Source of the DNA: Glaucostegus cemiculus
Lineage: Eukaryota
Assembly (NCBI GenBank): GCA_976551045.1
Contig: CDPCPM010000002.1
Location: forward strand, 3,472,001 to 3,536,000
Direction: 5' to 3'
Length of the DNA stretch: 64,000 bases
A program made the position numbers and the translations under genes. The notes under the pieces were generated by a model that made no database searches, was not told the DNA's origin, and saw nothing but the letters and a program-made list of their open reading frames with translations. Below are positions 46,601 to 55,600 of this stretch, in pieces (position 1 is the stretch's first letter; each line of letters begins with the position of its first letter).

Positions 46601-49600
46601 ATGATTGTACCTGCCTCTACAGCTTCCTCTGGCAGCTCGTTCTATGTAGGTGCCACCCTCTGTATGGAAAAGGTTGCCCCTCGGACCCCCTTTAAATCTT
46701 TACCCTCTCACTGTAAGCCAATGGGCTTTAGTTCTGGACTCCCCAACCCTTAGGAAAACACTGTGGCTATTGAAACATACGAGATCCTGAGAGGTCTTGA
46801 CAAGGTGAATGTCGAGATGTTTCCACCAGTGGGATAATCTCAAATAGGTGGACGTAAGTACAAGAATAAGGAGCAGCCGTTTAAAACCGAGGTGTGTAAG
46901 AATTTCTCTTAGAAAGTGGTGAATTTTATGGATCTTCTGCCTTCGAGGGTTGTGGAGATCAGATCATTGGGGGTATTTGAAGAAGTAGATAAGTTTTTGA
47001 AGGATCAGGGAATTGAGGGCAGTGAGGAACTGGCACAGGAGAGGGGCTGGGGCAGATGTTGAATGATGGGGCAGTCTTGAGGACTGAGTGGCCTACTATT
47101 TTGTTGTCTGGTTCTTTGTTTGACAAGTAGTGGGTTGGGGAAAATCTCATTTAAATGTCCATATAAAACCACCACACAAAATCTGCAAAAACTCAGCCAA
47201 TCTGAGGAAGGGTCCCTGACCCAAAGCGTTGATTGATTTCTCTTTCCACTGATGCTGCCTGACTGGCTGTGTTCCTCTAGCATTTTCGTTTTGTTTCAGA
47301 TTCCAGCAAGTGCATTTTTATTTGTTTTCTGTGCAGTGAATTCTAGTGTGTGGACAGATAGGGCCTTATTAAAGCAAGGTTACATACAGCTGGTGATTAG
47401 AGCAATACTTAGAGGATCATATTGATTGTTTTCTTGTTTTCCTACTCATATATTCCCCATTCCCTCTAAACTCCACCCCTGGGAAAATATAACTGTGATT
47501 ATATACATGAATATTACCAACACATTCACATAAGTGGATCATAGGTGTCTCGCTTCCACCCCTCGCAGACATATACAAAGACCGTTGTGTGAGGAAGACC
47601 AAAAGCATAATGGCTGACCCTTCTCACCCCTCCCACCACCTCTTCACAATTTTGCCATCAGGGAGGAAGCTTAAATGTATCAGGGCAAGAACGACCAGGC
47701 TGAACAATAGCTTCTTACCGCAAGCCATCAGAACTGCAAACTCTCTCATCCCTCCATCTTCCTTTGTTAACACTAAGAGATGCTAGGTGCACAGAAATGC
47801 ACCAGCACTTTAAATGCCCGACACCAACCCGTTCACTTTAATAACTATTTATTTATTTACCGGCCATTTTTAATTTAATCTGTGTAATAATTTAATTTTA
47901 ACTTCCGTAGCTTTTAGTGTCTAATGTTTTGTAATGTTTATTCTGTCAAGTGTATATGTGTGTCTCTGTTGGTTGTTATGTTATTTAATGGGACGAGCAC
48001 CTGAGGAGGACGGTATCTCGCTCCTATGCATACTATGTATGTATATGGTTGTGACAATAAAAACTGATTCTGATTCTGATTCTGATTTCCAACTATCCAG
48101 TCTCTGGTCTAATATCCATCATTATTTCCAAGCTAACAGTCTGCTAAACCACACCTTCTCCTTTGATACCTTGACTATATTCCCATCTTTCCTGCTGCCC
48201 TGGTTCTGAAAGCAACCTTTACCCAGTTCAACCTTAACATGGGTTAGAAATGGCATTATGTCTTGTTCTTTAAAAGCCCCGTGTTCATGAGACATGCTTC
48301 CTGTTCTCTTGCTCCTAATTTAACCAAGGTTTTAACCAGCCTGTTTCCCTACATGAGCCATCATTTTAGTTGGTGCAGCTGATGGTTCCCTTTCCTCTGT
48401 TATTGTTTTCTCCACTTTTCTAAAAGCCCAAAGTCTGGTTACCATTTTTGGTCTGTAATAGGCCCCACTGTTTGTTATGCTCTTTTATCACATATTCATA
48501 AAACTATTATGGGTTTTCCTTGCCTACCATGAATTTTACATACACCTTCTTTGCCTCCTCAGTTCCTTTTATAACTTCACCTTGCAACATAAGCTGTCGT
48601 AAGCTTCCAACCCTGTGTGTTCCTTAATAACCAAGAGGATCTAGATTGGGAATGCTCCCTTTTGAAAGATCTTTGGACCAAACAACCATTTCTCCCCCTT
48701 CATCACTTCTCATGGTTCTGACACTGATTTACCTTCATGTAGCTGGTTACAATGCACTTTTGCTCGATCACACTGCAGCCTAGTAAAATTGGCTGTAGCC
48801 GATTGTTGTGAGAAATCAACATGACTGTCACGTGACAGCAGTGACATTGACCCCCCCACTGACCAGAAGTCAGTATTGCTCCTTCTAATCGGAAGTCATC
48901 CTCCTGTCAATCAAGGTGCAGCTCCACCCACCCCTCAGGTGGGAGAGTATCCCTTGACCCTAAACCTGTCTAACCAGTTCTTTTGTCTTTGACCTCCCTT
49001 GACCATTGGCTGTGGCAGAGGCTTTTGTCCTTGACCTCTCCACTATTGGCTCTTTCAAATGGTAACAGTAAGGCTCCACCCAGCCTTCCAGCACTATAAA
49101 AAGGGCTGAGACCCCAGCTCTTTCTCTTTCTACGACCTGGGAGTAGTGAGGTAAAAGTACAGAAACTTTCGGTAAGAGTGCATCACCACATGGTCAGGGA
49201 GTGTTCCACTCAAACTCCGGGTAGTGTTAGAGCCAGTGCTAGGGTGGGCCCAGCACTGTAGTGTTATAGTCTGAAGTAGTATACTGTTACTGATTACCTG
49301 TGTGCATCAGCGTGTGTGTGTGTTTATTTTACCCCTGTTGCGATCCCTCTCTCGTGTCTCGCGGGTATCCAAGTGTGTGTGTGTGTGTGTGAGTGAATGT
49401 ACCCCCGTTCCCGTCCATCCTGCCCTGCGTTCTGCGTCTGTAGCTTATAATAAAGTTCTCTTTGTTAGTAAACCAAACAGTGTCCAGAATTCTTAATACC
49501 CCCAAGACCCACACGAATCATTTCCGGGAACATTTGGCGCTGCGAGCAGGGTCTTGAGGGTGTTGGCTGGACACGAGCGTGGGCAGGATGTTCTGGAACA

Positions 49601-52600: not shown

Positions 52601-55600
52601 GCCTATGACCACTGCTGATGATGCCATTAAGCTGGGGCTCCCTGAACTCCGAAAAGGACCCACTGGATCTTGGGCTCCAGTATCCACCTGTGGCTCCCCA
52701 CAGGCTGGTACAGTTGCTGTCTTCCAGTGTTTGACGGTGCCTTGAATCCACACTCGATGAACAGGGGGGAGCACCCAGCACGCAGCACACAGCAGGGACA
52801 GGGACAGCAGGGCCATTGCGGAGACAGGGAGGCTCGAGAGGATGGCCTGCCCTCTGTATTGCACGGCCAGACTGTCCCATGAGAAATGATGACTGCAGCA
52901 GGGTTGGCTGCAGTCAGGCTGGTAAACTGGTGGAATCAGACAGTCCTGGATGATCCACTCGCTGGTGGTACATGTGCAGTGATTACAAAGGAGTACTATA
53001 CCTTTCAGCCCTCTGACCTGGCTGCTCACTTCAGGGACTCAGTGGCTAAAACTCAGAACCAAGGGACCAGCTCCACCAGCACTGCACCTTATGGGAAACA
53101 AGTGTCCGTGTGGGCCACTGGGGGATGTTGGGCTACTGTCACCCACTGACCATTGCCCTCCTTTTGTTGATTATGATTTCTGTATGTCCTGATAGTTCCT
53201 CCCTTGATTTTCAGATCGTCTGACTTCCGAGGGGTGGAATGTTGTGAGAAATCAACATGACTGTCACGTGACAGCAGTAACATTGACCCCCACTGACCAG
53301 AAGTCAGTATTGCTCCTTCTAATCGGAAGTCATCCTCCTGTCAATCAAGGTGCAGCTCCACCCACCCCTCAGGTGGGAGAGTATCCCTTGACCCTAAACC
53401 TGTCTAACCAGTTCTTTTGTCTTTGACCTCCCTTGACCATTGGCTGTGGCAGAGGCTTTTGTCCTTGACCTCTCCACTATTGGCTCTTTCAAATGGTAAC
53501 AGTAAGGCTCCACCCAGCCTTCCAGCACTATAAAAAGGGCTGAGACCCCAGCTCTTTCTCTTTCTACGACCTGGGAGTAGTGAGGTAAAAGTACAGAAAC
53601 TTTCGGTAAGAGTGCCGAGAGTGACTCCACATGGTCAGGGAGTGTTCCACTCAAACTCCGGGTAGTGTTAGAGCCAGTGCTAGGGTGGGCCCAGCACTGT
53701 AGTGTTATAGTCTGAAGTAGTATACTGTTACTGATTACCTGTGTGCATCAGCGTGTGTGTGTGTTTATTTTACCCCTGTTGCGATCCCTCTCTCGTGTCT
53801 CGCGGGTATCCAAGTGTGTGTGTGTGAGTGAATGTACCCCCGTTCCCGTCCATCCTGCCCTGCGTTCTGCGTCTGTAGCTTATAATAAAGTTCTCTTTGT
53901 TAGTAAACCAAACAGTGTCCAGAATTCTTAATACCCCCAAGACCCACACGAACCATTTCCGGGAACACCGATGTAGAACTTTTGGTACTGGTCTGTCAAT
54001 GTCCTTTGCATAAATTTGCTGAATCTAACCAAACTGTGGTCACTGCTTTCAAATTGCTGTCCCACAGCCACACTTTCAACTCGCCCATGCTCATTCTCTA
54101 AATCTGGTGTCAGCTTCTTGTTGGGTTTGTTGTTTAATATATTCTCTTGAATATATTTTAAGAACACCTTTTAAACCCTTTACTCTGTCACAGTCACCAT
54201 TAATGTTTATGTAACTGAAATCATCTACAATTATGGCCTTGTTGTTTTTAGATCTCAGAACTTTAGTCACAAGTTGTTCAATCTCCCTGTGATAGTTAGT
54301 GGTTCTGTAATAAGCATTATGGTCCGTCCACGATTTTCATCTAGACCCGGAACAGAAGATTTTGTTACTAATGACTGATTTCTGTGGTTATTTATAATTA
54401 TTTCCACCCCACTCTTTCTGTGCTCCTCTACCCCTTCTCAATTGTTCTATTACACAAGGGATCATGATTAAGGAGAGTTCCTTTATCTTGCATGTGATAA
54501 TATAGTCATCATAACTACATCCAAGCACACAATCTGAAAATGGTGATGGAAGTTATTCTCAGTTTTTTGCACTATGCACATATTGGTGGTAATTTGTCCC
54601 CTCACACGTAATGTTTTTTTTTCAGAGAAAGTTGACTCTTTGAACTGCCCTGAAATTGGCTTTTTTGAACAATCATTTGTAAGCTGTTTGGACAATAATG
54701 TACAAACTGTTTGGAAAGAAAACCATTTCCAATAGTGTTTTCTAGAATTATTGTAGGGATTCTTGCACAAGACTTCTCAAGCCAGGTCAAAAGGACACAC
54801 TGCACATTCATTGGTCTAAATACCACAGCTGTTCACAATCTGGAGTGCCCATGGAAGCCAACTCTCATCATGTAGTACATCCTTCGATGAATGTTTCTTA
54901 GATGTGCATGTTCCATTTGTTTGGAAAGTTTTGTCAAATAAATTCATGTGTACTAACAGTTATATTAACTTTTATTTTCCAGAAAACAATTTTATACCAC
55001 TTAAAATTTAAGCAACTCAGCCAACGCAATTATTTTGGTAAATCTAAGCAGCGTTAAACCTGTACAATTTACATTATTTTACCATCCATCTAAGATTTCT
55101 CATTTTTTGGTTACATTTTGGGTTTGTCCGTGCACCTTTATGGAAGGATGAAATCATGGAGTTTACTTCCTGTTTCATGATGCATAAAATATCTTAACAA
55201 TGCAGTTCCGAAACTACGTTATAGGATTGGTTAGATTTTACTACAATAGTCTGAGCAGGTTGCACATTGTCTAATGTTGCTGATTTTGTTTGCAGACATG
55301 CCTGCAGAGAGTATAGGATTCACAAGGAGTTGGATCACCCCAGGATAGTCCGACTCTACGATTATTTCTCATTAGATACAGACTCGTAAGTTTCTGTCTT
55401 CATTTGTACTGCGTTTTTGTAGAGCTGAAGTTGGTAAGGTGTTGGTTAATGTTGTCTTTACCCCTTCCACTGAGGCAATAGCCATGTCAAACTTGTGCAA
55501 TGTTATGCTTTCTATTTAAAACAAAAAGACATGAATAATTCCCCTGTTGGGTTGTCCTGTTGGCATGATTTACTGAGAGTGTTCAAGATGGTCACATTTT

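Follow-up and report, generated by a model that had tools for sequence, protein, structure and literature searches.

In a 64,000-nucleotide stretch of the Glaucostegus cemiculus genome (contig CDPCPM010000002.1, positions 3,472,001 to 3,536,000; hereafter the window, in whose coordinates all features are given), we identified an endogenous retrovirus (ERV) at 48804-53967. It is probably a recent copy of a class III ERV that has lost nearly all of pol, drawn from an old multi-copy pol-less lineage that was copied in trans by the reverse transcriptase (RT) and integrase (IN) of an autonomous relative. What is shown is, as judged from its letters, an integrase-type insertion of a genome that apparently already had no working RT and IN; given retroviral biology, an insertion without working enzymes of its own means that these would have been supplied in trans. 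Mobilisation in trans with the protease retained had been proposed in an initial annotation of the window, and the proposal is supported here, as the damage appears older than the insertion and the protease keeps all of its conserved columns. The mechanism is known in kind; what is new is the host and the architecture. The distinctive trait is an apparently conserved protease next to an apparently long-dead RT in a recently mobile element from a poorly studied host group.

Structure of the provirus

The annotated bounds of the provirus were borne out by the alignment of its long terminal repeats (LTRs) and by its flanks. The 5' LTR (48804-49532, plus strand, 729 bp, TGT...ACA) carries a TATA box at 49095 and a polyadenylation signal at 49449. 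The 3' LTR (53240-53967, plus strand, 728 bp) differs from it by the two substitutions (48843/53279 and 49518/53953) and three indel events (one in a C-run, one compound indel near 49175-49186 and one in a GT microsatellite) first reported, and the 5-bp target-site duplication (TSD) is perfect, with identical copies at 48799-48803 on the left and 53968-53972 on the right. A TGG-starting 19-mer resembling a primer binding site (PBS; 49535-49553, plus strand) lies two bases 3' of the 5' LTR and is also found in copy 2, a more damaged provirus elsewhere in the window; we take it to be of the Ser-tRNA type. The polypurine tract (PPT) is at 53229-53239 (plus strand). An Rfam scan returned 0 matches.

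The class III-type gag frame (49588-51021, plus strand) starts with the ATG at 49588 and is broken by in-frame stops at 50110-50112 and 51019-51021, and its C-terminal part (51022-51349, plus strand) contains a frame change relative to the upstream frame, ahead of the protease. A second frame, 50987-52003, is open and holds the end of gag, the protease and the RT N-terminus, so that pro is in the same frame as pol, an XtERV-S-like trait. The retroviral aspartyl protease (51350-51625, plus strand; DTG at 51413-51421) matches Pfam RVP with E=1.1e-6. The description of gag and protease as largely open is accurate for the protease and too generous for gag, with its two stops and frame change; because of the gag stops, Gag and protease of this copy are likely not made in working form. 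The gag translations, which contain no CCHC box, are 61% and 73% identical to two gene models (P0014 and P0001) of the stingray Hemitrygon akajei and match the gag parts of protease-RT relatives. For gag, neither Pfam nor PDB gave a match, a word-indexed protein search gave one match among 2196 candidates, and an Fv1 cluster, ranked 20th with a score of 0.89, is no more than a lead. The same kind of search with the protease-RT region found no match among 874 longer and 1169 similar-length candidates, and no junction-spanning protein.

Pol had been described as cut down to a drifted RT N-terminus without YxDD, and this is what the alignments show. The RT remnant (51743-51928, plus strand), recognised by alignments, conserved columns and its place in a tree, is in frame with the protease, and similarity to full-length pol relatives stops at 51910-51928 in all seven alignments listed. 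Downstream of 51928, no match to RNase H, IN core or dUTPase of full-length pols was found at E<0.05. Alignment to those pols places the junction of the large deletion at 51910-51960 (plus strand), and about 2.4-2.8 kb are missing relative to a caecilian full-length pol. The remnant has no YxDD, a broken D-Y-R-x-x-N motif (as tabulated in PMC8278194; papers are cited here and below for the portions of them available to us) and two small in-frame deletions. The short tail that closes the protease-RT frame (51929-52006, plus strand) is, by its position, possibly an IN C-terminus (p about 0.15). Its earlier identification as an IN C-terminal scrap was not upheld, as the tail aligns to the pol C-terminus in 8 of the 10 sequences of one caecilian cluster at chance level (p 0.14-0.17) and to 11 whole proteins no better than chance (p 0.17-0.76).

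The stretch at 52007-53220 (plus strand) has no dominant open frame. That it is eroded, as first described, is evident from its 13, 14 and 14 stops in the three frames; its identity as env found no Pfam match and no meaningful PDB match. Pfam searches of 11 open stretches and six X-read stretches detected the protease only, and a PDB search of the transmembrane (TM)-like stretch gave chance matches to ABC transporters. Its start, near 52235, is hydrophobic, and around 52930-53010 there is a TM-like segment in which the CX6CC-type motif is not intact; these can be compared with the env slot and TM motifs (ISD and CX6CC) of XtERV-S (PMC8278194), and by its position and this degenerate resemblance the stretch may once have been env. 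A 21-bp tandem duplication is present early in it (52277-52327), a place at which organism B contigs vary.

Age of the insertion and of the damage

The LTR divergence is 0.28% (95% confidence interval (CI) 0.03-1.0%). At 7e-10 mutations per generation (PMC10587355) it corresponds to 2.0 million generations (0.24-7.3), and at 2.2e-10 per year, the rate assumed in PMC4422223, to about 6 million years (0.8-23). The insertion is therefore young by its LTR divergence, as had been claimed, but only in a relative sense, since elasmobranch clocks are slow and its age may be several million years. Since insertion, the 3.7-kb interior is expected to have gained about 5 (0.6-19) substitutions and far less than one new stop; several homopolymer indels of the interior could also postdate the insertion.

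Contig evidence came from 4 of the 10 listed runs, with the small-share runs X4 and X6-X10 set aside; the four represent three organisms (A, B and C) and were compared at an identity threshold of 80%. Organism A, with 0 differences in 257 letters of the right flank, is likely the same species as the window; flank divergence is 10% for organism B and 5-7% for organism C. One contig each in B and C begins at the TSD (53967 and 53969) and carries 201 and 184 letters, respectively, that do not align to the LTR. The leftover depth in bin 48414-48627 is 31.3 bases in B and 9.7 in C, and placement of the spare letters in the left flank predicts 31 and 12. The fit is close, with the joint itself absent from the rows listed, and we infer that the orthologous site is empty in both organisms. 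Such an empty site caps the insertion age at about 3% per branch and weighs against the alternative raised at the outset, in which the insertion is old and orthologous and its LTRs were converted.

Conservation was scored on a set built from 161 proteins less 10 cluster-mates, which gave 27 covering both protease and RT, plus the stingray RT; 22 rows passed the coverage filter for the protease and 25 for RT. The protease of the element keeps 10 of 10 conserved columns (median of the relatives, 0.86), and its RT remnant keeps 9 of 20 (median 0.86, with one of the 25 relatives lower), against 19 of 19 in the stingray RT. The contrast between protease and RT gives Fisher p=0.004, or p=0.012 when three columns, assumed to be among the conserved ones, are set aside for the deletion. 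The probability of losing at least 8 of 17 RT columns is <1e-11 on the LTR clock. With the most permissive age bounds, set at half of the flank divergence to C or B, it is 6e-6 and 2e-4. Because this decay is far greater than the insertion age allows, the damage appears to have been inherited and to predate the insertion. The claim to that effect in the initial annotation is sustained by the likely empty sites, by RT decay above any age bound and by deep same-species coverage of the RT remnant and the junction bin.

The implied RT drift is 0.28 per site (CI 0.11-0.56), which is not a host-clock date, as drift could be accelerated by RT errors over repeated rounds of copying. With that much drift, 16 stops would be expected in gag and 7 in the protease-RT-tail frame, where 2 and 0, respectively, are observed; at the lower drift bound the stop deficits still give p values of 0.04-0.05. 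Gag-pro thus likely stayed under selection after pol had died. The nonsynonymous to synonymous substitution ratio (dN/dS), a check suggested in the initial annotation, was computed in part, for gag and protease against copy 2, and fell below the shifted-frame controls (0.8-2.2): gag gave 0.15 and 0.41, its tail 0.44 and the protease 0.30. These values show a coding history of gag-pro, without its timing. The stop at 51019-51021 is private to this copy, as the depth there differs wholly or almost wholly in 4 of 4 runs. At 50110-50112 copy 2 also stops at the aligned codon, with purifying selection on both sides. Of 18 aligned codons in that class, 2 are stops in copy 2, which puts the odds of a chance coincidence at about 1 in 9. 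The shared stop, for which programmed read-through at 50110-50112 is a conceivable cause, is left unexplained at such odds. APOBEC-type hypermutation was rejected, as change counts are strand-symmetric (66 vs 71; 73 vs 66) and gag-pro is spared.

A probable multi-copy family

In the 17 bins of the interior (49484-53121), summed depth in organism A (two runs of one sample) is 325-1524, as opposed to 0-3 in the flanks, and LTR bins reach a depth of 15,500, up to about ten times the interior. This contrast points to a multi-copy family accompanied by many solo LTRs. In X1, 2816 of 4497 records were at least 95% alike. At two listed sites of the RT remnant, 72-87% of the organism A depth carries the letter of this copy, and the junction bin is covered in all four runs (depths of 494 and 674 in organism A, and of 242 and 412 in the others). 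No junction row was present among the 15 joints and 24 loose ends listed, beyond which there were 180 joints and 2479 loose ends. Sampled words were found in the same-species runs at 59% and 58%, and no RNA run matching the element was listed.

Some of the lesions, whose sharing among sister copies had been put forward as a check in the initial annotation, are not common to the whole family: in addition to the private gag stop, sister contigs differ in length at three places of the env-like stretch, with shares from none to 87% depending on run and place. Both organism A runs contain a joint from 49906 to 53767 (depth 10-14), connecting 5' gag to the inside of the 3' LTR, which suggests that there is also a deleted derivative of much smaller size. 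LTR variants with another segment before 49171 are marked by loose ends at that position in each of the four runs, and loose ends at 49529 in B and C mark a different U5 end, so LTR subfamilies would appear to turn over faster than the interior.

Probable mobilisation in trans and its alternatives

We propose that the LTR would drive a full-length RNA in which PBS, PPT and leader are retained, and that this deleted RNA would be co-packaged with the Pol of a helper and then reverse-transcribed and integrated. Active source copies may long have made their own Gag and protease, which would give them a cis advantage in packaging or maturation; a fusion protein of IAP I-delta-1 has been reported to act in cis (PMC6466679). 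Under this proposal, it is because source copies used their own Gag and protease that gag-pro stayed conserved, whereas drift affected RT and the env-like stretch. The copy at 48804-53967, with its broken gag, would likely be a dead-end passenger.

Several points weigh against copying in trans from such a lineage. No helper came to light among the sequences compared, and the sole relative with intact RT is a stingray gene model, 52% identical over the RT remnant. The conserved-column test has 10 and 20 columns only, and its relatives were found with the open reading frame of the element as query. With gag broken, one of its stops being private, selection on gag-pro is not demonstrable from this copy, and the dN/dS against copy 2 averages the whole path between the lineages, any autonomous phase included. 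Depth, furthermore, is not a copy number, and no contig spanning the junction by 31 letters on both sides was among those listed, with 20310 pieces beyond them. A helper with RT about 25% different would fall below the 80% threshold and so be invisible in the contig comparison.

A stronger form of the proposal, which we regard as possible if on balance doubtful, is that of a 'half-autonomous' class III retrovirus, in which Gag, protease and the open protease-RT-tail frame were selected beyond the split of the three elasmobranch species and only RT and IN were borrowed. Such an element would be a recently mobile intermediate between ERV-L/S and MaLR, independent of mammals and invisible to RT-based screens. 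If gag-pro were instead neutral among deleted copies, this would be an ordinary defective ERV family.

The element might alternatively be a pure passenger, mobilised in trans and supplying nothing, whose RT remnant and env-like stretch are old and whose gag-pro is a recent re-acquisition, gained when it recombined with a younger autonomous relative while the two were co-packaged. Defective ERVs are documented to recombine with competent ones (PMC10924933), depth in B and C drops 3- to 8-fold from the protease to the RT bins, so that the histories of these parts differ among relatives, and gag of the present copy is broken. We nevertheless find this unlikely, because neither the RT remnant nor the tail has acquired a stop, both stay in frame with the protease, their deletions are all in-frame, and organism A depth is fairly even along the interior. 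Somewhat less likely again is a large deletion that is private or rare, in an RT-dead family of mostly full-length members, with the 2.4-2.8 kb lost in this copy's own reverse transcription or later. The want of a junction-spanning contig among those listed fits that explanation, as does the finding that most deleted XtERV-S copies are single structures (PMC8278194). Full-length sisters with drifted RT would, however, give strong loose ends near 51915-51960, of which there are none among the best-supported rows, and in X1 and X2 only 1% of records run on unlike the stretch.

An old insertion in which gene conversion has made the LTRs alike, with all of the decay arising in place, is very improbable. 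The compound indel near 49175-49186 does sit where other LTR variants diverge (49171, 4 of 4 runs), and the word sharing with the same-species runs indicates more private difference than the LTR clock predicts, but a flank depth of about 3 could account for the missing words, RT decay exceeds the age cap set by the apparently empty sites (p=6e-6), and gag and protease have not decayed equally to RT. Copying by a long interspersed nuclear element (LINE), as for a processed pseudogene, or duplication at the DNA level is scarcely credible even with frequent LINE-like fragments (of a type that we presume) in the window, as the element has two complete LTRs with TG...CA ends, an exact 5-bp TSD, no poly-A tail and flanks unduplicated in the window.

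Relatives and comparison with known systems

A protein search of 1.84 billion representatives recovered 168 relatives at E<=0.001. Twenty were looked up, and those named come from a stingray, a caecilian, a newt, frogs, a bichir, turtles, teleosts and birds. The caecilian protein runs from protease through RT, RNase H and IN to dUTPase, the order given for ERV-L and XtERV-S (PMC8278194). The closest proteins are two gene models of Hemitrygon akajei, which by themselves point to a cartilaginous fish as the likely host; the intact one shows that a related lineage with an intact RT core exists in batoids. In a tree of 29 protease/RT rows the element is sister to the stingray protein (support 98/93; end branches 0.50 vs 0.16), the stingray row filling 48% of the columns. 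The element is apparently class III (ERV-L/ERV-S-type) and most resembles a deleted derivative of XtERV-S/HERV-S-type ERVs, the RT tree being one without named ERV-L/ERV-S references in which the best relatives include the caecilian pol of ERV-L order. Scans of metagenome and viral contigs gave 193 and 8 pattern matches, respectively, none confirmed as a relative.

The initial label of MaLR-like stands as an analogy and fails as membership, on interior structure, PBS and host. MaLRs, for which we also consulted PMC6466679, are class III-related and non-autonomous without functional RT/IN, as here, and solo LTRs likely far outnumber full copies in both. The excerpted description in PMC3769647 has MaLRs as LTR-ORF-LTR elements without gag-pro-pol and without a PBS, whereas the present element retains protease, RT remnant, env-like stretch and a PBS-like 19-mer; MaLR hosts are mammalian, whereas its closest proteins are from a stingray. 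With XtERV-S of Xenopus (PMC8278194) it shares TGT...ACA LTRs of about 0.7 kb, a 5-bp TSD and a pro that lies in the pol frame. XtERV-S also has an env slot and a gag of ERV-L type with no zinc finger, to which the env-like stretch and the gag of the present element may correspond. The PBS of XtERV-S is of Ser type in the same source. Ours is presumed to be so. Nineteen deleted XtERV-S copies, 11 of them structurally similar, are reported from Xenopus (PMC8278194) and are among the well-documented deleted ERVs mobilised in trans; as described there, what usually remains in them is PBS, leader, 5' gag and PPT alone, in contrast to the whole gag, conserved protease and env-like stretch seen here. 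HERV-S, HERVL32 and HERVL66 (PMC4724089) are class III, as the present element appears to be; they have an env slot of class I type and no dUTPase, but they are ancient and inactive and their pol is not deleted as a lineage; the absence of dUTPase here may simply reflect the deletion.

Mouse IAP I-delta-1 (PMC6466679) is internally deleted, is served by proteins in trans and keeps an open fusion frame, for which help in cis is reported; it differs in being class II, with a 1.9-kb deletion that hits gag and pol, whereas here gag and protease lie outside the deletion. In bovine ERVK[2-1-LTR] D-type, ETn/MusD and recKoRV systems (PMC10924933), defective copies outnumber competent ones and are mobilised by them. 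Those copies either have no functional genes or contain foreign centres that were swapped in, whereas here the centre is deleted and gag-pro bears signs of past selection. Damage older than integration, a trait of trans-complemented deleted sublineages, is found in the present element.

ERVs of cartilaginous fish are described as SnRV-like and epsilon-like (PMC4977317, PMC4422223); they are also reported from across the retroviral tree (PMC6001957) and with gamma-type env (bioRxiv 10.1101/2021.11.23.469661). Topical literature searches listed no account, for sharks or rays, of a class III family with pol deleted, though Repbase, Dfam and supplements may hold one. Large surveys find ERVs by RT similarity (PMC10435555, PMC4422223), so pol-less families would be missed or undercounted in these hosts. 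Trans-mobilised defective ERVs are known mainly from mammals; if our reading is true, the element would show which viral parts a parasite of retroviruses keeps for its own benefit, and would offer a datable stepping stone toward the MaLR state, the origin of which is too old for study in mammals.

Other features of the window

Copy 2, of a related family, occupies 252-2895 on the minus strand, with an LTR at about 2290-2895 and a similar PBS. Its gag and protease (252-2306, minus strand) are 72% identical to those of the element; the pol side has been lost, where a tandem array lies at the edge of the window. This array (1-251) is a perfect 18-bp repeat of 13.9 copies (100% match) that extends past the window; it starts right at the protease end of copy 2, is apparently made from proviral sequence and may be a young minisatellite or an assembly artefact. 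MaLRs that seed minisatellites are noted in PMC6466679.

LINE-like C-terminal fragments lie at 7204-8046 (plus strand) and 38940-39344 (minus strand), without a Pfam match, and are presumably of the CR1 type. Repeats of about 240 bp, the size of short interspersed nuclear elements, are located at 3773, 17974, 42374 and 44711 and are 80-90% alike.

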